Origin: a virus | Strand: one strand, 5' to 3' | DNA: 64,000 bases | Virus record (IMG/VR): IMGVR_UViG_3300045996_001561 | Coordinates: 1-64,000 of that record | Shown: positions 28,132 to 58,399 of the stretch, in pieces | Position numbering within the stretch: the stretch's first letter is position 1 | How the letters are laid out: every line of letters starts with the position of its first letter | The notes under the pieces: model-generated | Databases searched by the model: none | Seen by the model: only the letters and a program-made list of their open reading frames with translations | Told to the model about the DNA's origin: nothing | Made by a program: the position numbers and the translations under genes

Positions 28132-28178
28132 TGGTTTCCTCCTACCGCTACGGCTAGCTTCCGTACTAGCCTATAGCT

Positions 28179-28207
28179 ACTATACCATACCCGTAGGCGA
28201 TTGTCAA
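28179..28207 (-). promoter_or_regulatory. Early promoter
   Basis: TTGACA-ATCGCCTACGGGTATGG-TATAGT. Confidence 0.8.
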
Positions 28208-28211
28208 TAGG

Positions 28212-28382
28212 CTAGTACGCTACCCTATAGGCGCTACCCGCGCCTAGTGGCCAGTACCCCGTATAGGTACCCCAAGCGCTACGGTACTGTACCCGTACCC
28301 CGGCTACCCGCCTAGCCGCTAGCCGCCGTACCCGCGCGCCGCGCGATAGGTACCCCGTACCCCGGCCGCCTAGCCTAGTCAT
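28212..28382 (-). CDS. 56-aa Arg/Gly/Tyr-rich protein (not in ORF track)
   Basis: MTRLGGRGTGYLSRGARVRRLAARRVAGVRVQYRSAWGTYTGYWPLGAGSAYRVAY; promoter 28428-28456 and AGGGGG SD-like site upstream. Confidence 0.5.
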   Translation of the reverse strand: MTRLGGRGTGYLSRGARVRRLAARRVAGVRVQYRSAWGTYTGYWPLGAGSAYRVAY

Positions 28383-28427
28383 ACCCTACCCCCTACCGCT
28401 ACCGTACCTACCTACCTAACTACCGCT

Positions 28428-28456
28428 ACTATAGCATACCCGTACGCCATTGTCAA
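28428..28456 (-). promoter_or_regulatory. Early promoter
   Basis: TTGACA-ATGGCGTACGGGTATGC-TATAGT. Confidence 0.8.
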
Positions 28457-28546
28457 CTACCTACGCGCGGGGTAGCTACGGTACTAGGCTATAGCGGCGC
28501 GCGGGTAGGTATACGGCTAGTACGGTACTACGGCTATACCTACCCC

Positions 28547-28678
28547 TTGACATACCCGTACGGCTATGGTAGTATAGCGGTACTAGGGTAGTACGGGGTA
28601 GCGGGTACCCCGGCCTAGCGGGTAGGAAAGGGGGTAGCCTATAGGGGGGTTGACAATCACGGTACGCTATGGTAGGGT
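28547..28678 (+). promoter_or_regulatory. Tandem early promoters (28547-28575, 28650-28678)
   Basis: TTGACA-N17(TATGG)-TAGTAT and TTGACA-N17(TATGG)-TAGGGT. Confidence 0.75.
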
Positions 28679-28742
28679 ATACCTAGAGCGGGGTACGGGT
28701 AGCGCGGTACGGAACGCGCGGTACCCCGTACGGAGGAAACCA

Positions 28743-29078
28743 ATGCACGGCGTGACAACTGAAGAGCGGTGTTCCTGCGGCGAGTACTCACTCGCTGGGG
28801 GTGGGACGATCTGCGCCTCGGAAGCTCGGGCAATCGAGGAGGAGGCGGTTCGGAGCCACTATGAGGTCGCCTATGACGAGGTCATGCCATTCCTCGTCGA
28901 GATGTACCGAGGCGTGGTGGAAGAGGATCGCTCGGCCAACACCTTGATGGCGGTCGTTAGAGCAGCCCAGCTTGCGCTCATGAACCCCGACATCACGGTC
29001 GATTGGGTCAAGGAGCAGTACGAGGACGTTGAGTTCGGAAATCGCGCGCAAAAGGCGCTCGATCCTCGGGTGGTCTAG
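28743..29078 (+). CDS. Early hypothetical protein
   Basis: GGAGG SD before ATG 28743; the ORF-track start is the TTG of the -35 box. Confidence 0.7.
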   Translation: MHGVTTEERCSCGEYSLAGGGTICASEARAIEEEAVRSHYEVAYDEVMPFLVEMYRGVVEEDRSANTLMAVVRAAQLALMNPDITVDWVKEQYEDVEFGNRAQKALDPRVV

Positions 29079-29105
29079 ACAAGCGCCCACAATTCAGGCT
29101 CGGTA

Positions 29106-29171
29106 GGGGTACCCTCGGTACCCCGCTGGGTCGTGAGAAACGTACAGGGGTACCCTCCTTCGGGTACCCCC
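29106..29171. terminator. Twin GGGGTACC hairpins between convergent genes
   Basis: GGGGTACC-CTC-GGTACCCC and GGGGTACCC-TCCTTC-GGGTACCCC. Confidence 0.55.
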
Positions 29172-29190
29172 AGGAATCCGAACGTTCGTG

Positions 29191-29454
29191 CTACGGCACG
29201 ATCTCCCACGCCGCGTCCTCGGGGTCGTAGGAAAACGCCTCGCCGTTGGCGCAGATGGCCGTGGCTGACCCATCCTCAAAGACTCGGAGGACTTCGCAAT
29301 CCGGGGTTAAAAGACTCTGAACGTAGCGTTCGTGCGCGTTCAGAAATCGCGCCATCGCGTAGTCCGGCTCGGGCGGAACGTGGGCCGACGCGCTCCCCGT
29401 ACCCAAAACCGCCGCAATCCCGAATGCCGCTACCGCGTACCGTACCTTCCGCAT
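29191..29454 (-). CDS. Secreted hypothetical protein (Sec signal)
   Basis: MRKVRYAVAAFGIAAVLGTGSASA signal peptide; own promoter 29494-29522. Confidence 0.65.
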   Translation of the reverse strand: MRKVRYAVAAFGIAAVLGTGSASAHVPPEPDYAMARFLNAHERYVQSLLTPDCEVLRVFEDGSATAICANGEAFSYDPEDAAWEIVP

Positions 29455-29493
29455 CGCCTACCCCTTTCGTACGTACCTTTTTCAACTAGGGGT

Positions 29494-29588
29494 ACTATAG
29501 CATACCCGGCCTAGTTTGTCAAGGGGTACCTATAGGGAGAATAGCCTACCCCCTACCCCTTGACAAACTGGTAGGGGTATGGTACTAT
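29494..29588. promoter_or_regulatory. Divergent promoter pair (29494-29522 minus; 29560-29588 plus)
   Basis: Both TTGACA-N17-TATAGT/TACTAT with TATG(G/C) extended -10. Confidence 0.8.
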
Positions 29589-29656
29589 AGCCGTAGTTGA
29601 AAAAGGGTAGCGGGTAGCGGTAGCGGTACCGTACGCGCTACCCGGAGGGTACGAAG

Positions 29657-29938
29657 GTGGATTGCCCCACAATGGAAGAGGAAGCGCGGGAAGCGGTAGG
29701 TATCGCTTTCTGGCGGGATCACGGCGACGACGTCGAGGCATTGACCTCCGCGATCGAAACCGGGAAGATCGAGGCTCGGACGTGCTTCGACGCCATCCTC
29801 GCTCGGAAATCCTGGCGAAACGCGGTCGATATCGATTACGCGGCCGAGGCGGAAGTCGAGTACAACTTGGCCGAGTTGTGGTGGGATCTGCAGCATCCAG
29901 ATCGGGAATTCCTCGACGCCATGCCCCTGGTCGGATAA
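29657..29938 (+). CDS. Acidic early hypothetical protein
   Basis: Own promoter and SD; D/E-rich. Confidence 0.6.
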   Translation: MDCPTMEEEAREAVGIAFWRDHGDDVEALTSAIETGKIEARTCFDAILARKSWRNAVDIDYAAEAEVEYNLAELWWDLQHPDREFLDAMPLVG

Positions 29939-30041
29939 TCCGTACAACGCACCGAATCGCTCGGGTTCCCTCGGGAATCCGGGCTTTTCGGGGTGACAGG
30001 TGTTGGGAGTCCTCGGGATTTCCCAAGGACTCCCCGTGGGT

Positions 30042-30308
30042 TCAAAACCGCTCGGGTAGGTTTCCGTAGCGTTCAAGGAGGAAGATCTGATCGTCCAGAT
30101 CCGGCTCCTTTGGCGTGGGATCGGCTCGGCGGCTCGGGTAGATTCGCTCAAATTCGTCCAGATCGGGGTCGTCTCCGTACAAGGCTCGGAGCGTCTCCCA
30201 AATCCCCACCGCTCGACCGAATTCGTAGGGGTTGGCGTGGTTCATCTCCACGTTCGCGCGTCGGATCAGGTTTCCGACCTTTTCGCGCTGGGTGATCGGT
30301 ATCGCCAT
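30042..30308 (-). CDS. Early hypothetical protein (MAIPITQREK...)
   Basis: AAGGAGGAG SD before ATG 30308; promoter 30346-30374. Confidence 0.65.
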   Translation of the reverse strand: MAIPITQREKVGNLIRRANVEMNHANPYEFGRAVGIWETLRALYGDDPDLDEFERIYPSRRADPTPKEPDLDDQIFLLERYGNLPERF

Positions 30309-30345
30309 CGGCTCCTCCTTTTTCCGTACCTTCCAACGTGGGGGT

Positions 30346-30440
30346 ATAGTACCATACCCGTATGCTTTTGTCAAGGGGTAGGGGTGGGGTATTTTGCTAC
30401 GGCTATACCCCTTGACAAACTAGTAGGGGTATGCTATAGT
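30346..30440. promoter_or_regulatory. Divergent promoter pair (30346-30374 minus; 30412-30440 plus)
   Basis: TTGACA-N17-TACTAT and TTGACA-N17-TATAGT. Confidence 0.8.
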
Positions 30441-30496
30441 AGCCACAGTTGGATCGGGGTACGGAACCCAGATCCGGGTAGACGAAGGAGGAAACG

Positions 30497-30772
30497 GTGA
30501 AATTGGATAAGGCGAAGAAGGAATTGGTCAAGTCGTTGCTGGCGGAATCCGCGCAAGCGGTCGAGGATGCCAGAAAAGCCGACCGGGAAGCCAAGACCGG
30601 CTCCAAGACCCGATTTGAGCGGGTTCGGCTCCAAGGCGTCGAAACCGGGATCACCACGGCGCTGATCGCGATCTTTGGCGAGGATGCGGTGGCGCTCGTC
30701 GAGGACGAGATCACCACGGAGAAGGAGAAGGCGGAACTTGCCGCGCAGGAGCCGGTTGAGGACGCCGCCTAG
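30497..30772 (+). CDS. Early hypothetical helical protein
   Basis: AAGGAGG SD, GTG start. Confidence 0.7.
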   Translation: MKLDKAKKELVKSLLAESAQAVEDARKADREAKTGSKTRFERVRLQGVETGITTALIAIFGEDAVALVEDEITTEKEKAELAAQEPVEDAA

Positions 30773-30874
30773 ACCCTCGGGGGTACCCTCGGAAGCGGGG
30801 GTACCCTCGTCTGCGCCCAGAACGCGGGCAAAGAGCCACTCCCCAGGCATCCTGGGGAGGCTCGGGGTCGTGGC

Positions 30875-31027
30875 CTAGAGCGGGAATCGGTAGGATCGAC
30901 CCATACGCACCGATGCAAGATAGGATCGACCAACGTTGGCGCGGCGTGCGGCTCGGTACGACCAGATGCCAGCAACTCGCTTGCGGTGGTAGCGGTAGAT
31001 CTTCCGCACGATCCAGGGGGTTTCCAT
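30875..31027 (-). CDS. Small basic protein (50 aa, METPWIVRK...), possible HTH
   Basis: GGAGG SD; promoter 31080-31108; SYRAARRANVGRSYLASV is HTH-like. Confidence 0.5.
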   Translation of the reverse strand: METPWIVRKIYRYHRKRVAGIWSYRAARRANVGRSYLASVRMGRSYRFPL

Positions 31028-31079
31028 AGGGTTTCCTCCGATCTTTGCCGGGGTGCCGTACCCCGATTCCGTAGTTCCT

Positions 31080-31152
31080 ATACTACCATACCCGTAGGAA
31101 AGTGTCAAGGGGTAGAATAGGGGTTGACAAACGTACGCGGGTATGGTAGTAT
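31080..31152. promoter_or_regulatory. Divergent promoter pair (31080-31108 minus; 31124-31152 plus)
   Basis: Both TTGACA-N17(TATGG)-TAGTAT. Confidence 0.8.
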
Positions 31153-31199
31153 TCACCTACGTTGAAGGGGGTACGGAAACCCCGAAGGAGGAATCGCCC

Positions 31200-31454
31200 A
31201 TGAAGCGCGAGGATTACGAGTTCCTGATCGAGAAAGCCGAGAAGGTGGTACGGGATCACCAAACGGCCGTGGACGTGGTCGAAGGCGTCGATAATTCGCG
31301 GGAATCGGTCATGGCCATGAAGCTGGCCGAGGCGCGGATGGAGGGATTTTTCGACGGAATCTTCGCCGCCTCGCGGGATTCCTGCCTCGCGGGATTTGTG
31401 CGCCAAGATGCCAAGTTTCGGATGGATCGGGATCGGATTCTCGATCTGAGCTAG
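31200..31454 (+). CDS. Early hypothetical protein
   Basis: AAGGAGG SD before ATG 31200. Confidence 0.7.
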   Translation: MKREDYEFLIEKAEKVVRDHQTAVDVVEGVDNSRESVMAMKLAEARMEGFFDGIFAASRDSCLAGFVRQDAKFRMDRDRILDLS

Positions 31455-31566
31455 CACCGCTCGGATCAGCACGGAAACCGTGGGGAGATCCCCACGGTTT
31501 CCTGCCTCCCTGGAAAGGCACGACGAAGGGTACCCCGAGGATGGGGTACCCTCGGTGGCGTGGTTT

Positions 31567-31854
31567 CTACCAGCCTTCCTCCCACTCTCGCTCGGTCGTG
31601 CAGCCCACGATCGCGCATGGCTCGACGTAGGAGTAGCGACCAAAGGCGATGCCGCCTTCGATCCCGACCATCTCTAGCTTGCGGACGTTGCCGACCAGCC
31701 GCAGATCCGTGGGATCGGTGCCTTGCGCGCGGTAGTCCGCGTAGTGATCCTTTTCCTCTTTCAGGAAGGCTTGGGCGTCCTTCTTGGTGCGGAAGGTTCC
31801 CTGGTATTCGTCGTTGACGCCGTCCCCTAATCCCGCGTACCCGTGGTAATGCAT
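31567..31854 (-). CDS. Early hypothetical protein
   Basis: AAAGGAG SD; promoter 31890-31918. Confidence 0.65.
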   Translation of the reverse strand: MHYHGYAGLGDGVNDEYQGTFRTKKDAQAFLKEEKDHYADYRAQGTDPTDLRLVGNVRKLEMVGIEGGIAFGRYSYVEPCAIVGCTTEREWEEGW

Positions 31855-31889
31855 GCGCGTCTCCTTTCTGCGACCTTCAACGTGGGGGT

Positions 31890-31950
31890 ACTATAGCATA
31901 CGGGTACGCCATTGTCAAGTCTTGACAATCGGGGTAGGGTATGGTAGTAT
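31890..31950. promoter_or_regulatory. Back-to-back promoter pair with abutting -35 boxes
   Basis: ATTGTCAAG-T-CTTGACAAT palindrome; -10 boxes TATAGT (minus) and TAGTAT (plus), each 17 nt away. Confidence 0.82.
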
Positions 31951-31997
31951 ATAAGCGTGGTAGGGAAACGGAACCCTACGGATCACGGGAGGATGCG

Positions 31998-32711
31998 ATG
32001 AAAGTTGATCCGATCTATGCGTACGCGCTTGATGGGCATCTGGAGGATTGCCAGGGGAATCACCTGGGAACCTATCGGGTGATCTCCCGGTGGCGCGTGG
32101 GATCGCGCTACATGGGCTGGTATACGTGGCACGCCATCCGGGCGAGGATCCGGGGTCTCGATGGGGAGATGTGGGCGCGGTACAACGTCGACAACGGCTC
32201 GGCCGTCGCGCTGCGACCGGTGCGATCATGAGTCTCACGCCAAACCCGACGTTCGATCCGAAAACGGGGGAGGATCTGCCTCCCCACGTCCGCTACGATG
32301 GCTGGTTCCATACGTGCGGCGACTGTGGGAATGATGATGCGGTGTTCATCGTCACCCTCGACGGCGAGGATCACTTCTCCTGTCGATCATGCGTCTATGC
32401 GCACTATCTCGCTATCGCGTAGGAGGCTCGGCGCTTCGCACCAGAAGGAGGCTCGGATGGCTCGGTATTGCCGGGATCGGTACGAGGGTCAGCTTCGTGC
32501 CAACATCTACGGTGCCACCAAATACGTGGTGGCTGATGTGGAAACCGGGAGGATCGTCGCGGAACTCGACGAGAACGATCAGCTCCTGACGCATGAGAGC
32601 GCCCGATCCCTCGCCGCAGGGATGAATGCGATCATCTGGCAGCAGCGTCGACGTCATGGGCGATGCGCGGGGCATCCCAGGACTCGGGATCGGGGTCAGT
32701 CCTCGGTCTAA
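31998..32711 (+). CDS. Three small early genes (31998-32231, 32228-32422 CxxC zinc finger, 32457-32711)
   Basis: SD sites and ATGA coupling; followed by hairpin 32727-32756. Confidence 0.6.
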
Positions 32712-32765
32712 CCCTCGGGAACACGGATCACCCCCTGGAATTCCAGGGGGTGATCCTCGGTGCGG

Positions 32766-32996
32766 CTAGCTGATCCGGGTGTTCCAGAGATTGTCCTTGA
32801 TCTTCTGCAATCGGTAGGATCGCTTGAGGGCGCTCGGGCGATGCTTCCCGTTGGCCATCAGATCGTTCTCGCACCGCTCGATCTCGGCGTCGATGCGTCC
32901 GACCTCGTCGCGCAACGCTTCGACTAAGGCGTCCACGCGCGACTGGATCGCATCCTCCGTCAGATTCCGTAGCGGGATCTTGTACCCGGCATCCAT
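32766..32996 (-). CDS. Early hypothetical coiled-coil protein
   Basis: GGAGG SD; promoter 33046-33074; ACGGAA hairpin 33020-33034. Confidence 0.65.
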   Translation of the reverse strand: MDAGYKIPLRNLTEDAIQSRVDALVEALRDEVGRIDAEIERCENDLMANGKHRPSALKRSYRLQKIKDNLWNTRIS

Positions 32997-33045
32997 CCTG
33001 ATTCCTCCGTTTCCTTTCCGGGGTTCCGTACCCCAACGTGCGTCA

Positions 33046-33106
33046 ATACTACCATACTGGTACCCTATTGTCAAGGCTTGACAAACTACCCCGACTATGG
33101 TAGTAT
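33046..33106. promoter_or_regulatory. Back-to-back promoter pair with abutting -35 boxes
   Basis: TTGTCAAG-G-CTTGACAA; both with TATGG-TAGTAT. Confidence 0.82.
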
Positions 33107-33141
33107 AGAGGCAGTTGAGGATGGTACGGAAAGGAGGCAGC

Positions 33142-34031
33142 ATGATCCACGGGAACGAGAACCCCGGCAAGGTGGCCGAGGCGATTGCGGAGGCGTTGCG
33201 CACCGCATCAGAGCATGGGGAGTTCGTCGATACGGACGACGAGCCACCCCGGATCGAGGTCGATCATGGGTTTCAACCCTTCCTCACGATCCGGTTTCGG
33301 AATGGCGCGGAATTCCAACTGACTCCGGTCAGATCGGCATGGCCGTCTGAAGGCTCGGCCCAATTCCTCGGCTGCGATCAGTGCGGCGAGACGGTGTGCG
33401 AATGCTGCGAACGCTGCGGTCGACCACCGGGGTACGAGCATGATCGCTCGGGGTGCGTCGAGTACATCGCGCCGGAAGGTGATGAGCGGTATCGGGAGGG
33501 ATCATGACCGCATTGGAGGCGATTCGTCGGATCACGGACATCGTTGAGGCGTGGGAGAACAACCACGATCCCAGCGCCCAGAACGATATCGATACCCTCT
33601 ACGAGATCCTCGGCATCGCGGGGGAGGTCGAGGAAACCGATCCCTACGCCCTGACTCCCTCGGAGGAAGATCGCTGGCGGAAAGATCAGGCCCATCCCGC
33701 GTAGGACGGATCGGGATCTCCCCCATACCCTCGGTGACATCTGTCACGCGGGGGTCGGGGTGGTGAAAGGAGAACGATCATGGATCGCTCGGAATGGGTC
33801 AGGATCAAGTACCGAGAACTCGATCCCACCGTGGATACCTTCGCGGATATCCGGGATCACGTTCGGGCATCGCTGCAGGAACAGGTTGACTTCTGGAAGG
33901 GTGACACGATCCAGGGTCGGGCCGATGTGGCGCGCCGGAATGCCCTCGGAGTACCTCCCCTGAATCCCGCGCGGCGTCCAATGGAACGGTGGGCGATCTG
34001 CGCGCTCTTTGTCGCGGCCGGGAAGCTGTAG
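33142..34031 (+). CDS. Three early genes (33142-33507 Cys-rich C-terminus, 33504-33704, 33780-34031)
   Basis: SD sites; consistent coding pattern. Confidence 0.6.
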
Positions 34032-34034
34032 GGG

Positions 34035-34063
34035 TTGACAATACCCCGCGTATATGGTACTAT
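34035..34063 (+). promoter_or_regulatory. Early promoter
   Basis: TTGACA-N17(TATGG)-TACTAT. Confidence 0.8.
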
Positions 34064-34113
34064 ACAACCAGTCAAGTGGGGGAACGGAAGCCCTCGGACG
34101 GAAGGAGGAAACA

Positions 34114-35037
34114 GTGATCAGGCCAGGAATGAAGATCACCCTAGAGAGTCTGGAAGAGATCGGGCCGTTCGCATGGCCGGGAGGGTACGTCAATACCTTC
34201 ATCGACCGGGATGGCAGCATCCTGTGCTTCGATTGCGCCAAGAAGGATCTGCAGGACGGAAACCCGTTCGGATCGATCGCGTACGCGGGGTACGAGGAAC
34301 GCGACCCCGAGGATGGCGACGTGATTTGCGATGGATGCGGACAGGAGGTCGATCCGGCGATTCGCGGTCGAGACGACGATCCCGCCACCGCCTGCCGCTA
34401 CCGCGTACGCGGGAAGGATGTTGCCGAGTTTCACACGAACGTGTGGGACGAGGTGATCACCGAGGCTCGGAAGCTGCGCGGTGAGGGGATCAGAAACATC
34501 GCCGTCGAGGAACGGGATCACGGGCCGGGGTTTGGGCCGGGACATTGGGTGGAGGTGATCTGGTCGTGAACGCATGGACAGGTCTGCGGCTCTCGGATGC
34601 GCGGCGACAACTGGTCGGCGTCAAATCCCAGATCGATCGCTCGATCCAAGCGGAGGACGACGACAACTGGCTCCGCGATGCGCCCCAAGATCCCGAAGCG
34701 TACGTGTTGCTCAATGAGATCGTGGGTCTCGTCAACACCCTCGATCAGAAGCTGCTTGACCTCGTCTTGAGAAAGGATCACGATGCTGTTCCAGAAGAAG
34801 AAGCCAGCCAAGAAGGGTCGGTCGCGCACATCATCGACCCGACCAGCCCCAGCGCGGAGGAACTCTGGGGTCAGTAAGATCCCTCGGGGGTACTACGAGA
34901 ACTTTGGCACCGAGTACCACAACACGCGCGGGATGGGGTCAACCTATATCGCGGCGGCAGGATCGGGATGTCTGGGGGTCTCATGGAAGTTCTTTCTGAT
35001 GGTGATGCTGATCGGGATTGTGATTGCCGCCTTCTGA
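34114..35037 (+). CDS. Early genes 34114-34569 (CxxC...CxxC), 34566-34877, 34783-35037 (C-terminal TM helix)
   Basis: AAGGAGG SD; coupled starts; zinc-binding and TM motifs. Confidence 0.55.
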
Positions 35038-35382
35038 GGGAGGCCCAGGCCCAGATCAGCACGGCCTGGATCGACGGCGACACGGACACCCTCGTCCAGT
35101 GGCTGGGCGCACTCGATCGCTCGATCCAGGCGAACGATCCACTGCAGAACGGTGCGGCCTTCCTGATCGAGTACACCGTGGCAGGGTTGGAGATCCTCCT
35201 GTTTGATCCCACGGTGCATGCATTCTATTGCACGGCACTCCTACCCCAATTCTGGCCCCAACGCCCCACAGAGGCCACGGAGCGCGTCCACAGCGGGGGT
35301 TCCGTGGATGACGACCGGCAACGTCGTGCCGACGTGCTGCGGTTTCGCATCTTCGGGCCGTGGGAAGGGATGCCGGGGGACA

Positions 35383-35555
35383 TTGACAAATACGCGGGGG
35401 TGAGCTACACTACGCAGGCAACTAAAGGGAGCTTCCTCTAAGCTCCTGGGGGGTCGACACCGGCGATGCCGGAACCACTCGATCCCCAAAGGTTTCCTCC
35501 GAGTTGCACCTTCCGTGTCGGGAACCCCGGTCGCAAGGCTGGGGTTCTTGGCGTC
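35383..35555 (+). ncRNA. Candidate small RNA (promoter 35383-35411, structured ~135 nt, terminator-like hairpin)
   Basis: TTGACA-N17-TACACT, then hairpins GGAGCTT/AAGCTCC and GGGGTCGA...TCGATCCCC, ending in GAACCCCGG-TCGCAAGG-CTGGGGTTC-TT; no SD-led ORF. Confidence 0.4.
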
Positions 35556-35602
35556 CCGATCACCCCCTGTGTATGTATGGGAAACTGGTTTCCATAATAC
35601 CC

Positions 35603-35631
35603 TTGACAATACCCGTATGGTATGGTAGTAT
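35603..35631 (+). promoter_or_regulatory. Early promoter
   Basis: TTGACA-ATACCCGTATGGTATGG-TAGTAT. Confidence 0.82.
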
Positions 35632-35680
35632 TGTCAGTGGTGAAGGGTACGGAACCCTTCGCACGGAAGGAGGAAACGCG

Positions 35681-36354
35681 ATGCTGCAGACACAGGTCGA
35701 TCATCAGTTTGGGGTGGGCGACCGGGCCATCCTGAAGCTGCGGCCGGGACGCAAGTTTGCCTACACCGGGTGGAAGGACGGCGATCTCGTCATCATCGAT
35801 GCGGTCAACTTCCGCATCAACGCGGACGGATCGACGGTCGTCTTTTACGCGGTCACCCACACGCCCGGTGGGGGGCACGTCCACGTCGGTGCCAATGAGG
35901 TGGTGCCGCTGCTCGATCGCCCCACACCCCCACAGAAATTCCTGATCTACGGCGGTGCGTACATCGCGCTGCTGGAGAAGGCGCTCGACGGCGGGCCATT
36001 CGCTCGGGCCATTCGCAACGCCACGCGCGCCGGAAACGATGCCTGCGGGTACGAGATCGTCCCGCGCAACGCCGAGGACGCCGCCCTGATCGCGCAGGCG
36101 GTGCGGGATGTGATGGTGCGCTGATGCCTGAAACCACCTTCCAGCACGCCTTTGCCATCGGGGATGCGGTCATGCTGAACATGCGGGAGACGAAGCAGCG
36201 CAACGGCTGGGTGAACGGCGAGACGGTCTACATCCAGACCGTCAGCTTCCGCACGGCTCGGGAGGGATCGTACACCTTCTACACCGTGGGTATGGAGCCG
36301 GTCAGCACGTCCGTGATCAAGGTTCGGGATATCGACGTGGAGGCGGCAACGTGA
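35681..36354 (+). CDS. Two tandem paralogous genes with small SH3/KOW-like domain (35681-36124, 36124-36354)
   Basis: HQFGVGDRAIL...GWKDGDLVIIDAVNFR...FYAV versus HAFAIGDAVML...GWVNGETVYIQTVSFR...FYTV. Confidence 0.6.
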
Positions 36355-37005
36355 ACATCTACGGACACACCTATCAGCAGCGCCGCGAGATCCAGCGGCA
36401 AGCGAATAAAATCTCGGCCCTCTGGCTCTCCCCTCGGGGCAAGCTCTATGGCCTGGGGGAGATCGAGGTCAAGGCGGCACGGGAGTATGCGTCCCACAAC
36501 GAGTACAAAGGCGATCCAGGGGGGTGGATTCGGCGCACCGCATCGGATCGGGTAATCACGCAGGGGTGGAGAAACTTCTTCCTCGCCCGCACGCGGATGA
36601 TCCTCGACTGGTACACCCAGCGCCTGACCGCCTTCCCCAGCTTCGCGGCCATGATCGATGCGCCCTCCACGTACCGGCCGACGCTGATGCAGACCTCGAC
36701 GGACTGGCGGTGCTGGCTGCTGGCCTTCCACTACGATCAGACGATGGCCTATCGGGGTGATCCGAGGCGGGTCTATCGTGGCTAGGGGGAGGGTTCGGCT
36801 CAAGCGCGGGGAGCAGCGCGTCACCACGTACCACCGGGGTGACGTCACGGCGATCATCAGCGGACGCAGCAGCGGGTACTACACCATGACGATCAACGGG
36901 TTCTTCGGGGGGATCGCCCACAGTCGGCATGAGGCCAAGTGGATGATCCTCTCGGGCCACTACGTCAACGGGCCTGCGCTCCTACGGAGGATTCCGCATG
37001 GATAA
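36351..37005 (+). CDS. Hypothetical genes 36351-36785 and ~36778-37005
   Basis: Coupled ORFs in the same operon. Confidence 0.55.
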
Positions 37006-37633
37006 GATCAACATCTACCGTGTGAATATCACCGGCGTCGATCAGGTGCTGTCCTTCAGCGCCCCTGACGCTCCGATGGCTCCGATCTGGGCCAGCGTGT
37101 GGCCCTCGGGGGTGGCACTGGCCTCGGTCATCTGGCGCGACCGGGAGCGATTTGCCGGGAAGAAGGTCTTGGAGATCGGGCCGGGTCTGGGGATCACCGC
37201 CACGCTCCTGGGGCTGGCCGGGGCTGAGGTCACCCTCGTCGATATCTCCCAATCCTGCCTCAATGTCGCGGCCTACAACATGCGGCAGAACGGAGCAGGG
37301 TACCCGGCCCATGCCATCGTCAGTGACATCCGTCACCCCACGCCGGATCTCCCGGGCCATCTTGAGCGTGGCGCATACGACATGATCGTGGGAGCCGACA
37401 TCCTCTATGAGGATGACGTGGTGGAGCCACTCCTGCGGACGATCAGTGCCGTCGACCACGCCTGGATCGCCGCCGTGATCCGGGAGCCGTTTGCCAAGTT
37501 CGCCTTCGATACCCCGGGTGCCGGGTGGACGATGCGTACGGAGAAGATCCGGGTTCCCATCCCCGACCCCATCGAGGGCACCGTTGACCCGGTCATCGTT
37601 CTTTACCTTGACAAAGCGGGCCGGGTATGGTAA
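36998..37633 (+). CDS. Class I SAM-dependent methyltransferase, Methyltransf_16 (protein-lysine MTase)-like
   Basis: WASVWPSGVALA, motif I KKVLEIGPGLG, post-I VTLVD, motif II YDMIVGADILYE (DxxY). Confidence 0.78.
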   Translation: MDKINIYRVNITGVDQVLSFSAPDAPMAPIWASVWPSGVALASVIWRDRERFAGKKVLEIGPGLGITATLLGLAGAEVTLVDISQSCLNVAAYNMRQNGAGYPAHAIVSDIRHPTPDLPGHLERGAYDMIVGADILYEDDVVEPLLRTISAVDHAWIAAVIREPFAKFAFDTPGAGWTMRTEKIRVPIPDPIEGTVDPVIVLYLDKAGRVW

Positions 37634-37636
37634 TAT
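37608..37636 (+). promoter_or_regulatory. Promoter
   Basis: TTGACA-N17(TATGG)-TAATAT. Confidence 0.78.
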
Positions 37637-37684
37637 AGGGACAATCGAGATGGGGAGCGGAAGCCCCACAGAAAGGAGGAACGG

Positions 37685-39223
37685 ATGCGGGATCGCGTCA
37701 CCATCGCCAACGTCGAGGCGGCGCTGAACTATTACACCTTTGTGATGGGGTTGACGGCCGCGCAACAGGCCGACTTCCTGATCGATACGAAGCGGACAGT
37801 CACGAACGGTCGGTCGACGACGCGGTATCGCCTGTCGCACTTCGACGGAGCGGAGATCGGTTTCCCCCTCGGGAGGGAGTGGCGCACCGCGCGGGAGATG
37901 CACGACGGTCTGCGGGATGCCGCCCTCGGCGTCAATTGTTACCGGAGGTCATTCGGATGAAGCTGGAAACCCTCGACCAAAAGCTGCAGCGGAAATACCC
38001 GAAGCTCTCCAAGAAGGAGCGGATGCTGGCCCTGCTCCTGGCCGATGCCCAGCACCGGAGTCAGATCGGCCGAGCCAACGGCATCACCGCCACGCTGGAG
38101 ACGCTCCATCCCCGCAAGGCAGCAGTGATTTCGGACGCCGCCTATTTCATCCGCGAGTACAAGATCGCATCGGGAGCATGGTCATGACCAACGTGATTCT
38201 GCGGGCCGACGATATCGCGCAGCATCGGCAGGAGAGCGCCGTGCGGAGGGCGCTCCTGCCCTGCCTGCACCGGGTGCGGGTGGGTGACGACCGGGATCTG
38301 CATGAGATGATCGTGGCCGACCCGTTCCACGGATTCATCCCGGGAACCGCTGCGACGCTGAACAGGTGTCGTCAGGAAGCCTACTGCGTCAGCCGCAACA
38401 ACCCCGGCCTCACCGTCTTGGTGGAGCGTCTGGATGGGGATGTTGTCGCACGCTACATCAACGGTCGGGAGGTCTGAGATGGGTTCCGTCAGGCAGTTGA
38501 TCGAACTCCAGGGCGTCATCGAGGATGCGCGAGAGCAAGCCCGATCCACCTTTGAGTACAGCCTCTTTGCGGGATCGAACAAGGATGAGTCGGGGCAGGA
38601 TAAGGCCGAGGATCGCATCCTGCGCTATCTGGAGTTTGCGCGGAGCGAGGTCGAGATGCTCACCGGAAATCTGGTGCGCCATGAACAGCGGTAGCCCCCT
38701 GAATCGACGGGAGGTCTAGGTGCTGGGAACCCTACGTGCAGACGTGGTGGCGATCGAGGACAAGGGCAACGGCCTGTATGCGGCCCATCTCCTGATATCC
38801 GGAACGATCGTCGACGCGAAGAACACCGAGTACACCTTCGATCGTGTGAAATCGGTGATGGGATTCTCCGGGGGGATCGGGCCAAAGCAAACCCTCTCGG
38901 AGCAGCGGCAGGCCGAGGTACACGAGATCACGATGATCACACGATTTGGGGAGGGCATCTGAATGACCACACAGGCACAGCGGGATGCGATCGATCTGGC
39001 CCACTATCAGCGGCGGGAGATCGACCGCCGCTACAGCGTGCTGATGACCACCACTATGGGGCAGATGATCGCAATCGCCCAGGATGGGGTGCGCTGGCAG
39101 CAGGAGCATCGCCGGGCCGTACCGTACGCGGCCTACCGGGAGGAAATGGACACCGTGGTGTCGGTGATCGACCAACTCCGCGAGGGCATCCGCACGACGC
39201 TGCAGGAGGATGTCCGTGGATGA
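37685..39223 (+). CDS. Six small hypothetical genes (37685-37960, 37957-38187, 38184-38477, 38479-38694, 38720-38962, 38963-39223)
   Basis: SD sites and overlapping start/stop codons. Confidence 0.6.
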
Positions 39224-39704: not shown

Positions 39705-39711
39705 GCGACAC
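39275..39711 (+). repeat. Diverged tandem duplication, ~220 bp unit
   Basis: Both units start GGCGATCATYGGRCTTGTCGCRCTGATCTGG and end CTCCAGATATGG.GGGATCGATGAGCGACAC. Confidence 0.85.
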
Positions 39712-40149: not shown

Positions 40150-40174
40150 CAAATACATGCTAGTATGGTAATAT
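40146..40174 (+). promoter_or_regulatory. Promoter
   Basis: TTGACA-N17(TATGG)-TAATAT. Confidence 0.78.
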
Positions 40175-40224
40175 CCTCGTAGCTGGGGTGACGGAAGCCC
40201 CGAGGACGAGAGAAGGAGGAAACA

Positions 40225-41087: not shown

Positions 41088-41094
41088 CGACACG

Positions 41095-45778: not shown

Positions 45779-45807
45779 TTGACATACCCGCGATGATGTG
45801 GTACTAT
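45779..45807 (+). promoter_or_regulatory. Promoter
   Basis: TTGACA-N17(TGTGG)-TACTAT. Confidence 0.78.
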
Positions 45808-45855
45808 GCTCCCGGGTTGGAATACGGAGCCGCCCGGGAGCGACTCGGAGGAACG

Positions 45856-50635: not shown

Positions 50636-53600
50636 TTGGCCCTGCAAGTTGGCGGAACTACCCCGCGATCGCTGAGCGATATTGCCGCATCTACTGTCGA
50701 GATCGAGGAACGGCTGATCGCGCTCCGGGCGGTAAGGGATCACGTCGAGCAGGAGCAGCAACGCCTTCTGCTCCTGCAGCTTGACTACGAGCAGCAGATC
50801 GACGCCCTGGAGCGACGGCTGCCCAGACTGTGGGGGGATCGTGTCGACCTTATCCATGCCCAGCGCTTCTTTGGTACCGAGGATATCGAAATCGTTGGTG
50901 ATTGAGCATCGCGTCCCGAGGGACACCACGCCGATCTACGGGACGGTTGAGATTGCGCCCTACCCGGTACGGGAGTGGAGCGGCGGTGTCGACCTGCGCG
51001 GTCAGCCTCGCGTGGCCGGGTATGTGGGAGAGATTGCCCCGGGTGGGGATGTGGAAGCCTACGGCTACATCTACCGCTACCAGACGATGCGAACGATCCA
51101 CGGACGCGCCTGGATCCACCGGGCGCTGAACCGGCTGCAGTACCTCGGATCCTTCACCGGGACGGATGCCCACGACCGGGCAGTCGATGCGGTGCTGCGC
51201 GGCGACCGTGAGGCCACGCACGGTGAGCGATGACCCCGCGACCGTCCAGCCTTCGCAACCTCGCCTTCGTGCGGCCGACCTGTGTCGCATGCTCCGACAG
51301 GAGATCGAGGTTGCCAAGGCGTCTCAGGGAACGTACACCCAGAAGGCTAGGAGATCGATTGAGCGCATGGGGCCGGATGACAACAACGCTGACTACTGGA
51401 TGGTCTACGTGGCGATAGCTGAGATTCGTCAGCGGGCCTACGAGGCGGCATTCAGAGAGCAGTGCGATGGCTAGGATCACCCCGGAATTCCAAGATGAAG
51501 TCTGTGAGCATGCGAGGGTCTACCGAGCCAATGCGATCACCCACATCATATCGGAGAGTCACCAACTCCAAGCTGCTCAAACGAATGGCTGGAAGGATAT
51601 CGCCGTCACCCTGGTTGGCCGCATCACGGTTGAACAGGAGGTCATCGCTATGGCCGACCGACTCATCAGATTCTTCTGCTGCGACGAAGATGCATCCCCT
51701 GCCCGCCAGCACCAACAGCATCAATGGGAGCGATGGAATGCCGATCGAGCTACCGAGTAACGTCACGCCGCTGTGGGAGGGGTCGATCACGGTACGCATC
51801 TTCCGCGATCGACTCTGGCCCGACTTGCCCGCCGCGAGTGATGGGGAAGTAAATCTTGCGGACGTTGACCCCATCGCTAGCTCAATCAAGTTTGCCCGGC
51901 TCTGGCAGGACGAGTTACAGCGCCGCCAGAAGCGATCCCGATTGCGCTTTACCACGGAGCCGGGGTCGTTTCAGACGCAGGTCGATGTTGGCGTCAACCA
52001 TGCCAACCCTCGGGCGATGGAGGATACCCTGGCCGTGGGGATGAGCGTCTACGGCCGGTGGAAGGAGTGGGTGGTTCTCGTCGGGACTCCCGAGGCGCGG
52101 GATATCCGAGCGGCATACCAAGCCAACCGCACGGAGCAGCAACCGGAGGAACCCCCTGATCATGAGTTCTAACACCCCCTCCCCTGATCCGATGTGTCGT
52201 TCGTGCGGTCTGCGCCCCCGCAGCGGTGAGAGCCGGTATTGCGCCGTCTGCGAGGCGAACGGCATGGCATCGATTGATCGTCTTATGACGCGTGCGCTCG
52301 ATGATGTCATTGCTAAAACTCGGCAGAAGATCGACCGGAACCTCAACGACGCATTCGGGAGGGTGTGCGAGTGAAGAAGCTGGTTTCTGCGTGGTCGTCA
52401 ACGGCCAACGATCTCAACTGGAAGGCGAGGCGACTGGAGAGCGATAACTACCACCGCGAGGCCCAGGTGGTCTGGTCACTCGCCTCCACCATTGAGGTCG
52501 CCATCGAGACGAGGCCGCTCGATGAAGAGGTCGATATCGATCTCACCGACCAAGCGATCGATATGGCTATGCGGATAGACGATTGAGCGATCACGAACAG
52601 ATCCGACGCGGGCTGGCCGCATCGACTATGCAACAGGTGTCACGGCTCGTCAAGGATTACACCGACGCCCTTCCGGTCACCAGCATCCACAAGAAGAACG
52701 CGATCGAGGTCGAGCGCATCCTGAACCGGGTCGCCGGGGCCATCCGCGACGGCCACATCGCGCCAAGTGAATGGGAGTTCCTCACATGGCTCAGTCCGGA
52801 GGGCGGCTTGAAAGAAAGCCCTGCCGCCTCTGCAAAGAACCCGTCGTCTGGGTACAGCACATCAAGCGCATCGCAGACGGCATCGAGTGGGGAAAGCGCA
52901 CCCCCCTCAACCCCGACCCCCTCGACTTCCGAGCAGGCAACCTTGCCCGGGTAAACCCCCGCGAGGTTGAGGGCCGCACCGATGTCGTGGAGTTCATCCC
53001 CGAGAACCGGCGCTGGATGTTCGAACGCCTCTATCTCGATCACCACGCGACCTGCGAGGTCTGGAAGTGGTGCAAGGATCAGGGGTTCAGCTTCAAGGAG
53101 TGTCTTGACACATGCGCCAGCAACAAGCCGATTCTGAACCAGAGCGCGAGGGAGGATCGGGAGCCGCAGCAGTACTCCCTCGACCGGAGCCGCTAGGCCC
53201 ACGGGGAGACTGGCTGCCGCTTATCGACATGGGTGTGCGCCCAGGCGACGACGAGAAGGAGGTGGTGCGCCGAGGACAACGCGCGAAGGCCATCGAGCGG
53301 ATCGTGACGGGACAGTGGCTGTTCCCGCACGTCATCGTGCGAAGCTATGCTGCTGTCCCGTACGCTCCCCAGGTGCAGCATCACCCCTCGGGAGCGGTTC
53401 GCTACCAGTGTTATTGCCGCCAAACCGTCATCACCCTGATCCCCATGAGTGTTGCGGTCTGTCCGGCGTGTTTTCGTACCGTGCTGTACACCACGACCTA
53501 TGTGGTGATCGACGAGCCGTCTCGCATCTAGGAGGATATCGCGTGCCCCGTTCACTGACGATCCCGTACATTTCCAAGACCGCCGCCATTCGCATGGTCA

Positions 53601-55234: not shown

Positions 55235-55237
55235 GGG

Positions 55238-55266
55238 TTGACATACCGGGAGGATTATGGTAGTAT
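55238..55266 (+). promoter_or_regulatory. Promoter
   Basis: TTGACA-N17(TATGG)-TAGTAT. Confidence 0.8.
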
Positions 55267-55304
55267 TGTCGGGTAGTCAGGAACGGAACCTGACCGGAGG
55301 AACG

Positions 55305-56670
55305 ATGAACGACTATCCCGACTGCAGCGCCCAGCCGAACACCGACGAGCGTTGTGAGCCGACCGACGAGGATCTCGCCGCTATCGCGGGGTGGACGTGG
55401 GCAGGCTACCAGCGCATGTACCAAGACCATCTCTGCGCCGTGGCATCCCAGGAAGAGCGGTGGGGGAACTGGAAGGCCGGACTTGGGTACACACTCGATG
55501 CCCACGCATTGCACGGAGCAGATGGTGGATAGGCCGGAATGCACGCAGGAGCGAGAGGCATTTGAGAGGGCTAGAGCCACCTATCACCGCGCTCGTCGGA
55601 ATGCTGCGGCCGAGAAGAAGCACCTGAAGCGCATGACCCTCGCGCTCCGAGCTTTTTTGGTGTGTCGTGGGCGCTAATCTCAGCACCCTCTCGGTCGTGA
55701 TGACCGACGACGAGTTTCGCTTTGCCGCGAATCTGGCCGAGGAACGGGGTGAGGTTGCCGGGGTCGCCAGCCTCGTCCAGAACGTCTGGTTTGCGTGGCT
55801 GCAGGATCAGGGATACGTCGATCCATCGATCATCAACCCCGGCCCCGAGTACGAGGTTATTGACACCTGTCCGTGGTGCAAACGAAAGGTGGTGCCAAGC
55901 AAATCAACGATCACCGAGGACTTCCCGCAGACACAGGATGGTGTTGAAAAGATCATTCGCATCCTGTGGCATGGCAAGTGTCTGAAGAACGCTGAGAAGC
56001 GGCTCAATGAGGATCTTGACGACGGTCAGGACGATCCTCGTTACGGAGGCTACTAGTGCAAGGCACACGATTCAGTAAGCGGGGCAATCCCATCGTTGCG
56101 GGGTCGCACTCCCTGTTCCCCGACGACGGAAAAGGTGGTATCCGCATGGAGGAAATCCTCCGTTCGGAGATGATGCACGGGGAACCGGAGAACGTCAAAG
56201 TCTGCCAGTCGTGGATGACCAAGCTGGGTCAGGCGATTGCCGAGACGGATCGCCGCCTGACCGAGATGAGTTCTCGCGGCATCCGCATGATGCACCCCAG
56301 CGGTCGCTACTTCACCGATCTGGAGAAGTCGGAGCTTCGGGTGTCGCTGATCGAGCAGAAGAACCAGCTTATCGCGCGATCGCAGGATCTCCGACGCTGG
56401 CGCAACGAGCGCGTGCGGCAGGCCAAGGCGGGGGAGATTTCCGACCCCAACGTCTATAGCACGAAGCTCTCGGTCAACGTCCGCAACATGCGGGAAGCGG
56501 CCAAGCGGTATGGGCTACTGGAGGATCTCTACGAGGCCGTCAAGGTCTATCACTACGGCATGGGGGAGGACGAGGACGACCGACCGCAAGATATCGACGG
56601 TCAACGCTACGACGCGATGATCGAGGCGCTCGATGCGCTCATGGCGGATTGTGGCGATGAGCGCCCGTAG
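55305..56670 (+). CDS. Hypothetical genes 55305-55532, 55667-56056 and ~56146-56670 (coiled coil)
   Basis: SD-led ORFs downstream of the promoter. Confidence 0.5.
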
Positions 56671-57253
56671 CATCCACGTCGCCAGCAATCAGGACAAGGA
56701 TCCCTGGTGCCGGGTCGGGGAGGAATACGAGCGGGCCTTCGTCGAGATCATGCGAACGCAGCTTCGTCTCCCCATCCACATCAACCCTGCGAAGGGGATC
56801 GACAAGTACGCGGCCGATCTGGTCTACGGCGACGTGTTCACCCCATTCCCCAATGTGGCCGACCTGAAAACCCAGACCACCCCGTTCTTCACGGCGGATC
56901 GCTATGGTATGGATCCCCGCTTCACGGTGGTGTTGAACCGCAAGGATGTGGAGCGATACGACGCCTATTACGACTGGAGTATGTCGCTGTTCTTCTGGGT
57001 CGATTGGCACGTCACGGAGATGTTCAAGCAGCGCATCCCCTACTTCGGTGGCATCTTCGTCTGCAGCCTGGGTGACGTGATGCACATGATCAGCAACGAT
57101 GCGCCCGAGCATGTCTATCAGCAGCGCGCCGAGGATGGGCAGGGGAACGCGCGATCGTCCTTCCTCCTGTCCCTTGGTGGCATGACCAACATGGCATCCT
57201 CCACCGAACCAGACTGGTGGGGTGCCGTACCGAAAGGGATCGTCGAGCGATGA
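56657..57253 (+). CDS. Putative PD-(D/E)XK-like nuclease
   Basis: GEEYERAF...YAADL...ADLKTQ pattern. Confidence 0.45.
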   Translation: MSARSIHVASNQDKDPWCRVGEEYERAFVEIMRTQLRLPIHINPAKGIDKYAADLVYGDVFTPFPNVADLKTQTTPFFTADRYGMDPRFTVVLNRKDVERYDAYYDWSMSLFFWVDWHVTEMFKQRIPYFGGIFVCSLGDVMHMISNDAPEHVYQQRAEDGQGNARSSFLLSLGGMTNMASSTEPDWWGAVPKGIVER

Positions 57254-57922
57254 GTGATGGCAGCCCCAGCGCCAGAAGTGACGTCCTGACCCTCCTGACC
57301 ATGCTGGAGGTGTTAGCGCAAGACAATAACCCACACGGGATTACCGACACCCAGACATTGATCGCGTGGCTCTTTGAGGGCCATCCGTCCACGGTGGCCG
57401 AGTACCGGCGCATCCGCAACACCTATCTGACGTCCGGGATCCCGAACCGAGAGCCAGTCACCCGAGAGCGACTGGTGAATGCCATCAGCCCCATCGTCCA
57501 CGCGGCCAAGAGCTATGGCGAGGCTCCGACTCACGAAACGTGCGGGCGGTGCGTCACCACATCCCATCTGATCGTCGATGCGATCGCTCCCCTGGTCGGG
57601 CGATGGATCGAAGATCACGAACCGGACGAGGACGACCGGCCATCCGTCGATGACGATCTTCTGGAGGAACAGTGGGTGAAGGAGATGGTGCGATGACCCT
57701 CCCCACCTACGCCTACTTCCAGATCCGTCCCTACCACTCCCGCTACCGGGTGGCCCGGTCGTGGGCCGCAGGGTACTACCGCAGCGAGTTCGTCGGGGAA
57801 GTGGAGCGCGTCACCCAGAGCAAGTGGAAGGCCACCCTCTATACCGACCCCACCACCGAGGGGTTTGGGCGCACCCGCAATCTAGCAATGGCCCGCGTCT
57901 GGGAACTCGTTGGGGGTGAAGG

Positions 57923-58351
57923 ATGAAAGCAATCTCACTGTGGCAACCGTGGGCCAGTCTGGTTGCCACGCGCAACAAGTGGGTTGAAACCCGTTCGTGG
58001 CAAACCCCGTACCGTGGGCCGATCCTGATCCATGCGGCCAGGCGGAAAGTCACCCGAGACGAGCGAGAGTACTTCGAATCGGTCGCCGCGTTTCAGGACG
58101 CTATGCGAATGGGTGAGATCAGTTGGGATACCATGCCCTATGGTCAGATGGTTGCCTTGGCGGTTCTTGGCAGGGTCGTTCCGACCGAGGCAATTCGGGA
58201 CGCTATCCCCGACATGGAGTATGCCTTCGGGGATTACTCCAACGGCCGGTGGGCTTGGGTCTTTACCCGCATTGACCCCATCGATCCATTTCCCTACAAG
58301 GGAGAGCGCGGACTCTTTGACCTACCCTACGGGTTGACAATACCCCGCTAG
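57923..58351 (+). CDS. ASCH domain protein
   Basis: MKAISLWQPWASLV...KWVETRSW...YRGPILIHAA...KGERGLF. Confidence 0.88.
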   Translation: MKAISLWQPWASLVATRNKWVETRSWQTPYRGPILIHAARRKVTRDEREYFESVAAFQDAMRMGEISWDTMPYGQMVALAVLGRVVPTEAIRDAIPDMEYAFGDYSNGRWAWVFTRIDPIDPFPYKGERGLFDLPYGLTIPR

Positions 58352-58362
58352 TGTGGTAACAT
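58334..58362 (+). promoter_or_regulatory. Promoter
   Basis: TTGACA-N17(TGTGG)-TAACAT. Confidence 0.75.
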
Positions 58363-58399
58363 TCTTTCAGGTTGGAACGGAAGCAACCTCGGAGGAACG

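Follow-up and report, generated by a model that had tools for sequence, protein, structure and literature searches.

In mechanism, the systems closest to the leader element considered here are the c4 RNA of phages P1/P7, the CI RNA of phage P4 and the two-site leaders bound by CsrA; in genomic pattern, the closest are the SAS/ESAS sites of Cluster K mycobacteriophages. The targets of the P1/P7 c4 RNA (immI) cover the ribosome-binding site (RBS) of icd/ant, and the P4 CI RNA is a trans-acting phage antisense RNA. Both are short, structured phage RNAs devoid of an open reading frame (ORF), which act in trans on the phage's own genome through exposed segments complementary to two short boxes, one of them over the RBS. 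CsrA dimers bridge two sites spaced by ~10-63 nt. In CsrA/RsmA-RsmE sites (hcnA RBS, RsmZ stem-loops, glgC and hag leaders), an A-N-G-G-A-X loop on a stem is combined with a second GGA in the Shine-Dalgarno (SD) sequence; the ACGGAU loop studied by nuclear magnetic resonance (NMR) is the natural hcnA and RsmZ SL1 site (PMC4005645). In Cluster K mycobacteriophages, a conserved asymmetric motif surrounds the SD of many non-structural genes in a single orientation, with an upstream inverted-repeat element at about half of the sites, and the authors left open whether an RNA or a protein of host or phage binds there (PMC3203893). The present element is a hairpin with the loop ACGGAA, located between promoter and SD (together referred to as cassette) in the leaders of at least 14 early/middle genes of the phage represented by IMG/VR record IMGVR_UViG_3300045996_001561, the first 64 kb (positions 1-64,000) of which constitute the window analyzed. 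Judged by its sequence, it belongs to none of these families.

All 13 hairpins listed in the initial annotation of this DNA were recovered at their positions. As proposed there, they stand between -10 element and SD in sense orientation, with a promoter upstream and a strong SD downstream, and the same holds true for a 14th hairpin. The latter (31050-31064, minus strand, loop ACGGC) was detected by a covariance model derived from the 13 sites, with which both strands of the whole genome were searched without filters. Fourteen hits reached E ≤ 0.1, each of them lying in a leader and oriented in sense; the next hits scored at most 14.5 bits and none was located in a leader. While no enrichment is seen for the bare hexamer ACGGAA (37 in the window versus 30 expected), 11 of the 12 ACGGAA-loop hairpins (stem of at least 5 bp, loop of at most 9 nt) on both strands of the 79,344 bp follow a cassette promoter of their own strand within 40 nt. 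Leader positions amount to ~1,000 of 158,688 (~0.6 %), so that ~0.08 such hairpins would be expected there. Hairpins of this kind are thus not equally common outside leaders or on the antisense strand. The designation as genome-wide requires narrowing, since the feature is limited to the early/middle region at 28-58 kb and ~10 strong cassette promoters are devoid of a hairpin.

The stems change and covary, while CGGAA is invariant in the loops of the 13 listed sites. In the model-fitted alignment, 79.5 % of the cells are paired, a value reached by 0/500 shuffles (57.4 %), and double-sided stem changes number 18 versus 7.3. The covariation score is 0.54 versus 0.165 in shuffles (0/500), and every slid register scores lower. 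About seven stems are clearly different (GCGCG, GGCUAG, GUCAGG, AGGUUG, GGGAGG, GUAGGG and GAAGGGU), the others being of the GGGG/CCCC type, due to which arms swapped between partners still pair in one third of the cases. According to folds of the predicted leaders, the hairpin is dominant, the loop motif is 0.76-1.0 unpaired, and the SD is mostly open. The hexamer is positioned 7-20 nt upstream of the SD. A role of the 3' arm as a general anti-SD was rejected, since complementarity to GGAGG was found in only ~3 of the 13 arms. No Rfam family was hit at gathering threshold in the window. Leader restriction, covarying stems and the invariant CGGAA support the strand-specific, RNA-level signal common to many early/middle transcripts that had been postulated in the initial annotation. 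The cis element is a real leader RNA motif, not described before (no Rfam family), which marks at least 14 early/middle mRNAs; a post-transcriptional regulon is the right frame for it, and, together with a candidate RNA complementary to loop and SD, the pattern suggests coordinated translational control.

The same features bear on the notion that the sites act as DNA-level operators recognized by a transcription factor of phage or host, or as premature terminators/attenuators. Their position just downstream of promoters would suit an operator, but the arms vary while remaining complementary, as is characteristic of a single strand folding back on itself and not of a DNA site bound by a dimer; moreover, the motif is strictly strand-oriented and its distance from the -10 element is variable. 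For termination in this phage a U tract does not seem to be required, since its terminators lack one. However, with 4-9 bp the leader stems fall far short of the strength of the terminator hairpins (11-16 bp), and the combination of a G+C-rich stem with a following U tract, typical of intrinsic terminators, is absent from the leader hairpins. Action at the DNA level or by attenuation is therefore considered very improbable.

The arms also separate these sites from those of the Cluster K phages, as the arms of the 17-bp ESAS inverted repeat are conserved in sequence without RNA covariation (PMC3203893), whereas here the arms covary around a fixed loop. SAS is a 13-bp sequence (GGGATAGGAGCCC) at the RBS; the SD context in the present phage is a different one (CGGAGGAAAC), and its leader sites come with their own promoters.

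The cassette promoter (TTGACA-N14-TGnTAnnnT) is near-consensus and occurs in 25-26 copies in the genome according to a promoter scan; an independent consensus scan of 27.5-47 kb detected 26 promoter-like sites compared to 5.1 ± 2.3 in shuffles. Predicted 5' untranslated regions are ~40 nt long, and the SD is unusually uniform (CGGAGGAA(A)C, followed by ATG or GTG). About 10 leaders at 29494-33106 on both strands carry (C)A(C)GTTG(A/G)A 6-12 nt past the -10 element, i.e., around the predicted transcript start, independently of the hairpin. The convergent gene junctions 30778-30809, 31473-31502 and 32725-32756 carry long hairpins formed by perfect palindromes (11-20 bp) and lacking a U tract. 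Since, in addition, canonical U-tailed terminator-like sites are not enriched (11 found versus 9.9 expected, none at leader hairpins), the pattern suggests that tail-less hairpins suffice for termination in the host. The ~25 near-identical promoters of host type would all fire at once; therefore, any ordering of the genes must arise after transcription.

A purely passive function, in which a 5'-proximal hairpin stabilizes the mRNA or insulates the SD and the loop is retained for folding or by descent, without any trans-acting factor, would agree with several properties of these leaders. The hairpins begin 7-17 nt past the -10 element (~+1 to +11 of the predicted transcript), the SD is mostly unpaired in the folds, and the distance from -10 element to start codon is tightly kept at 47-50 nt in 10 leaders. 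Yet the distance to the predicted 5' end varies, with up to ~10 unpaired nucleotides, which is poorly suited for 5'-end protection. Furthermore, complete divergence of the stems but not of CGGAA would be unexpected for a merely structural role, as would the unpaired ACGGAA that four leaders carry beside their SD. In case of phage T7, early RNase III sites and 5' stabilizer hairpins likewise place a hairpin upstream of each early gene; here, RNase III would need longer stems than the 4-9 bp present, the hairpins are not located between cistrons of one transcript, and the identity of the loop is conserved. Passive structure is thus an improbable explanation.

The first hairpin leader, on the minus strand (28152-28171, GGCUAGU-ACGGAA-GCUAGCC), is preceded by a promoter at 28207-28179 and followed by the SD GGAGGAAAC and the GTG (28131) of an 83-aa gene; the second (28702-28719, GCGCG-GUACGGAA-CGCGC), on the plus strand like all others unless indicated, is embedded in a longer helix between a promoter at 28650-28678 and an ATG at 28743. 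The hairpin GGGU-ACGGA-ACCC (30457-30469) with the outer helix GGAUC/GAUCC is served by a promoter at 30412-30440 and precedes a GTG at 30497. In the leader of the additional minus-strand hairpin (GGGGU-ACGGC-ACCCC; promoter 31108-31080, ATG 31027 of a 50-aa Arg-rich protein), an unpaired ACGGAA is present just upstream of the hairpin (31067-31072). Next come GGGGU-ACGGAA-ACCCC at 31168-31183 (promoter 31124-31152, ATG 31200) and GUAGGG-AAACGGAA-CCCUAC at 31960-31979 (promoter 31922-31950, ATG 31998), followed on the minus strand by GGGGU-ACGGA-ACCCC at 33020-33034 (promoter 33074-33046, ATG 32996). Two leaders combine the hairpin with a second ACGGAA at the SD, namely GGGGG-AACGGAAG-CCCUC at 34078-34095 (second copy 34098-34103, promoter 34035-34063, GTG 34114) and GUGAAGGGU-ACGGA-ACCCUUCGC at 35640-35662 (second copy 35663-35668, promoter 35603-35631, ATG 35681). 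The loop variant GCGGAA is found in UGGGG-AGCGGAAG-CCCCA at 37651-37668 (promoter 37608-37636, ATG 37685). The hairpin GGGGU-GACGGAA-GCCCC (40185-40201, promoter 40146-40174) precedes the GTG (40225) of a 36-codon, strongly hydrophobic micro-ORF (40225-40335, plus strand) with one predicted membrane helix, which is driven by this cassette and followed by a 252-aa gene (40329-41087). Downstream of it, GGGAGG-AACGGAA-CCUCCC (41135-41153, promoter 41095-41123) leads to the GTG (41173) of a ParB_N protein. The last two hairpins are GUCAGG-AACGGAA-CCUGAC at 55276-55294 (promoter 55238-55266, ATG 55305) and AGGUUG-GAACGGAAG-CAACCU at 58369-58389 (promoter 58334-58362), the latter in front of the ATG (58400) of a SWIM zinc-finger protein.

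A variant leader at 45808-45841 (promoter 45779-45807, ATG 45856) forms a 9-bp helix (GCUCCCGGG/CCCGGGAGC) with a 16-nt loop containing ACGGAG. Unpaired ACGGAA directly against the SD occurs in four leaders: apart from the second copies at 34098 and 35663, these are hairpin-less copies at 30322-30327 on the minus strand (GGUACGGAAAAAGGAGG; promoter 30374-30346, ATG 30308) and at 33126-33131 (GGUACGGAAAGGAGG; promoter 33078-33106, ATG 33142).

Within the span of the hairpins (28152-58389), a candidate trans-acting antisense small RNA (sRNA) of ~135 nt was recognized at 35418-35552 (plus strand) from its fold, promoter and complementarity. The orphan promoter (TTGACA-N17-TACACT, 35383-35411, plus strand) is situated inside the 3' end of gene 34968-35441 and agrees with the consensus at 10 of 12 positions, as do most cassette promoters, but lacks the TG extension; downstream of it, neither an SD nor a credible ORF was found. 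In a minus-strand ORF overlapping the sRNA, G+C is distributed atypically over the codon positions, and the translation is rich in R and P. The minimum free energy (MFE) of the plus-strand fold is -69.4 kcal/mol (z = -4.15), compared to z = -0.81 for the opposite strand, and the 3' end is formed by a 16-bp GCAA-capped hairpin in the same style as the bidirectional terminator hairpins of this phage. The first hairpin of the sRNA (35427-35447, plus strand; GGGAGCUU-CCUCU-AAGCUCC) extends across the stop of gene 34968-35441, located upstream, and carries a third anti-SD-like pentamer in its loop. An origin of the region as a decayed or recently inverted minus-strand cassette was dismissed: there is no minus-strand promoter, the minus-strand ORF is atypical, and the reverse complement resembles the leaders only over the loop and SD motifs.

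The predicted RNA exposes two segments complementary to the leaders. The anti-SD segment GGUUUCCUCCG (35491-35501, mean unpaired probability 0.63) complements the SD consensus of the cassettes, CGGAGGAAACC, without mismatch, and the anti-loop segment CCUUCCGU (35509-35516, 0.98) is the complement of ACGGAAGG. Their order, anti-SD 5' and anti-loop 3', is that needed for antiparallel pairing with a leader carrying the loop 5' and the SD 3'. Of three plus-strand copies of TTTCCTCCG, the other two (19421 and 31032) represent the reverse side of minus-strand SD sequences, that at 31032 being the flip side of the SD in the 31027 cassette leader. Except for looser matches, e.g., at 32953 and 44328, the succession of anti-SD and anti-loop occurs on the plus strand only in the sRNA or where the opposite strand carries a real leader. 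Pairing of a 35-nt seed region with the 14 hairpin leaders surpasses that of 297/300 dinucleotide shuffles and 711/712 natural plus-strand windows. Cofold binding energies, with loop-linker pairing to an intact hairpin lying outside the model, average -9.6 kcal/mol for 22 cassette start regions versus -5.2 kcal/mol for 81 other genes with SD (Mann-Whitney p = 3.6e-6).

Thus, in silico, the locus offers what is expected of a c4-type regulator, i.e., an ORF-less structured RNA with its own promoter and 3' hairpin, and exposed segments complementary to targets including the RBS, with action in trans on the phage's own genome being predicted. In distinction from c4 and CI, the candidate sRNA has no Rfam match (a search over 35300-35700 gave chance-level hits only, with no membership in C4 or another family), its ~14-20 presumptive target leaders are distributed over 30 kb rather than belonging to one operon, and one of the boxes is displayed in a hairpin loop. 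Base pairing with the sRNA is also proposed to explain why all six loop letters are fixed, and why the variants GCGGAA (37651) and ACGGAG (45779) are A-to-G changes, since G-U wobble would keep the pairing with UUCCGU; protein models have no explanation for either.

In the mechanism envisaged, the leader hairpins would serve as cis-acting RNA operator sites presenting ACGGAA upstream of the SD, and the antisense RNA would be transcribed from the orphan promoter at 35383-35411. The loop hexamer would provide fast first contact with the anti-loop segment, from where pairing would extend over the SD, block ribosome binding and probably expose the mRNA to decay. As a stable sRNA accumulates, the whole class of cassette genes would be shut off together. 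While the cis motif with its covariation and restriction to leaders, the ORF-less element with its strand-specific structure, and the complementarity are shown in silico, we infer that the sRNA is produced, that it binds the leaders by pairing and that its effect is negative. Tentatively, the antisense RNA at 35418-35552 is regarded as the most likely partner of the leaders; with slightly more reserve, the phage, virulent-looking and from soil, may control a temporal class of at least 14 mRNAs by an antisense RNA that docks on the loop tag and zips over the SD.

Several points weigh against this interpretation. Complementarity to the loop comprises only 6-8 nt, the anti-SD part would pair with any strong SD, and the energy contrast between cassette and other genes is moderate against a high G+C background, quite apart from the restriction of the cofold model. 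Near-continuous complementarity is displayed to just two leaders, i.e., that at 58369, where it extends almost without interruption from loop to SD, and that of the non-cassette gene 52162, due to which the sRNA might regulate only these two. The complement of ACGGAA in the sRNA might be a by-product of descent. The 3' hairpin is devoid of a U tract, and a 42-codon ORF without SD (35465-35593) overlaps the sRNA. A search of sequencing runs listed the phage in DNA runs and in no RNA run; sRNA and transcription start sites are predictions. Finally, the case rests on one genome and on computation.

The start region of gene 52162-52374 (52112-52167, plus strand) has neither cassette promoter nor hairpin. 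It contains GCACGGAGCAGCAACCGGAGGAACC, a nearly exact reverse complement of the sRNA seed region, in the motif order ACGGAG-CA-GCAAC-CGGAGGAAC, and its predicted sRNA binding (ddG -20.8 kcal/mol) is the strongest of any gene.

Alternatively, a host CsrA/RsmA-type dimer could bridge the loop A(N)GGA(X) and the GGA of the SD, repressing translation until titrated, or the leaders could act as a sponge for CsrA. The affinity to CsrA/Rsm sites emphasized in the initial annotation is evident insofar as an ACGGAA or ACGGA loop together with a GGA in the SD fits the consensus published for high-affinity sites, in which an ANGGAX hexaloop sits immediately on a stem (PMC4005645), ACGGA(A) being nearly identical to the loop studied by NMR. 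All 14 hairpins carry GGA in the loop, although only 2-5 of them are minimal penta-/hexaloops. The second GGA (in GGAGGAA of the SD) follows 7-24 nt downstream of the loop GGA, and thus within dimer bridging distance, in 14/14 leaders; the hairpin-less ACGGAA copies adjoining the SD would also fit a two-site design. However, CsrA/RsmE binding leaves N and X of the consensus looped out, irrespective of the base (PMC4005645), yet here, where stems have fully diverged, N is always C (14/14 loops) and X is A in all loops but one (13/14). Nine of 13 loops have 1-3 extra 5' nucleotides, and an insertion between loop and stem in RsmZ SL1 lowers the affinity of RsmE ~10-fold (PMC4005645). A phage-encoded CsrA-like regulator, also considered initially, finds no counterpart in the genome, since no CsrA-family gene is present (best PF02599 match 12.1 bits at a cut-off of 27). 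As for a host gene, csrA is present in only ~30 % of bacterial genomes and unevenly distributed across phyla (PMC13443453). Known CsrA sites reside on host mRNAs or sponge sRNAs, while here they would reside on 14 phage mRNAs behind near-identical promoters. Due to the invariant C and final A, the extra 5' loop nucleotides, the lack of a phage csrA and the ~30 % prevalence among bacterial genomes, regulation by CsrA is possible but under-explains the conservation of the loop. We regard host CsrA as an unlikely partner, and the candidate sRNA would be the more specific one.

The combination of a variable stem with a fixed 6-nt loop is also the classic design of a protein operator and would suit a phage-encoded RNA-binding protein, either a translational repressor/activator (such as MS2/PP7 coat protein, T4 RegA or a Mu Com-like protein) or an N-like antiterminator. 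Nearly all early proteins are ORFans, among which an RNA binder could be hidden, but none of 20 early/cassette proteins contains a Pfam RNA-binding domain. In the earliest region, two very basic, Arg-rich micro-proteins of 50 and 56 aa are encoded on the minus strand, one (30875-31027) behind its own variant cassette, the other (28212-28382) within the segment 27783-28740 of odd TA-dinucleotide composition. They match no family and are not similar to each other, and the ORF of the latter may not be a real gene.

As for antitermination, the nut site (boxA plus boxB) recognized by N of phage lambda likewise features a short G+C-rich 5-bp hairpin with a purine-rich 5-6-nt loop in an early leader; as to an N-like protein, the present phage has the two Arg-rich micro-ORFs mentioned. 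Instead of the GAAAA/GAAGA loop, however, ACGGA is present here, there is no boxA, and 14 sites rather than two stand each before a single, terminator-bounded gene. The loops (ACGGA(A), 5-9 nt) are not GNRA-like pentaloops of a 15-nt hairpin behind boxA, and the only recurrent upstream motif, GTTGRA at ~+2 to +8 of ~10 leaders, is unlike boxA. Long perfect bidirectional hairpins (those at 30778-30809, 31473-31502 and 32725-32756) delimit the early units, which argues against processive antitermination. The analogy to boxB drawn in the initial annotation therefore fails on loop type, number of sites and the single-gene units bounded by strong terminators. A phage RNA-binding protein as reader of the loop is judged improbable, to the same degree as passive structure; both rank behind host CsrA/Rsm and the antisense RNA, which stands first, and ahead of DNA-level action or attenuation.

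The genome (79,344 bp, 62 % G+C, CheckV completeness 99 %) has late/structural genes on the minus strand (1-27.7 and 59.5-79.3 kb), including those for a 2,651-aa tape measure protein, TerL, portal and a ParB-methyltransferase. Early/middle genes, mainly on the plus strand, occupy 28.7-59.4 kb and include those for the ParB_N protein, a helix-turn-helix (HTH) replication initiator and a primase/helicase; at 28-34 kb they are organized as single-gene units of alternating direction. The segment at 27783-28740 consists almost wholly of GGTAGC/GGTACG-like units of 'TpA-only' composition and contains four cassette-type promoters, with the tandem promoters 28547 and 28650 both facing gene 28743. For an early gene at 36998-37633 (plus strand), the match is to Methyltransf_16 (E = 5e-12), a family of lysine (protein) methyltransferases rather than of DNA methylases. 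No tRNAs were found in the phage, late proteins yielded nothing diagnostic of the host with Pfam and PHROGs, and a protein atlas search for host inference returned viral clusters only. Since Logan contigs from soil/terrestrial metagenomes of four studies (2017-2025) contain identical 150-440-bp fragments of the phage (window positions 28001-42000), it or very close strains recur in soil; the hairpins show no sequence variation in these fragments.

The phage is without close relative in the collections searched. Megablast of 14 kb against phage records returned nothing, and tblastn of primase/helicase, TerL, portal and major capsid protein detected only 23-33 % identity (to phages of Proteobacteria, Bacillota and Actinomycetota and an archaeal virus). 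A search for related loci in IMG/VR revealed remote kin only, and these loci as well as Achromobacter phage JWF are devoid of the promoters and the motif. The ParB-like cassette gene has a single homologue (P0002, 41 % identity) on a 4.3-kb contig, and a methyltransferase search of genome contigs found no relative. Scans of IMG/VR and metagenome contigs with the cassette pattern gave single unrelated hits only. A widespread class of ACGGAA-loop hairpins was dropped, because the external hairpin hits proved to be other elements, e.g., the groES CIRCE operator or a palindromic operator before a MerR-like gene.

One unrelated low-GC phage contig (IMGVR_UViG_3300021068_000287, 32 % G+C; loci L125, 1-5800, and L130, 12540-12600) carries 8-11 near-identical promoters (TTGACA-N14-TGGTATAAT) on one strand, followed by CAT(C/A)TTGAACGGAAAGG...AAGGAA...ATG, i.e., by the same ACGGAA and a TTGA motif without hairpin. 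No complementary sequence was found in the 25 kb examined of this contig, and the likeness may be coincidence or shared logic.

Temporal control in phages is usually ascribed to promoters, sigma factors, repressors and antiterminators. In this phage, belonging to a lineage without described relatives, a loop tag absent from Rfam and conserved on 14 leaders provides a clean, testable handle on a post-transcriptional layer. If host CsrA were the partner, the phage would plug its early programme into a global host regulator, or sponge it. If the sRNA is the partner, the leaders would constitute an unusually large virus-encoded RNA-RNA regulon, and tag plus antisense would make up a compact, orthogonal module for synthetic biology.

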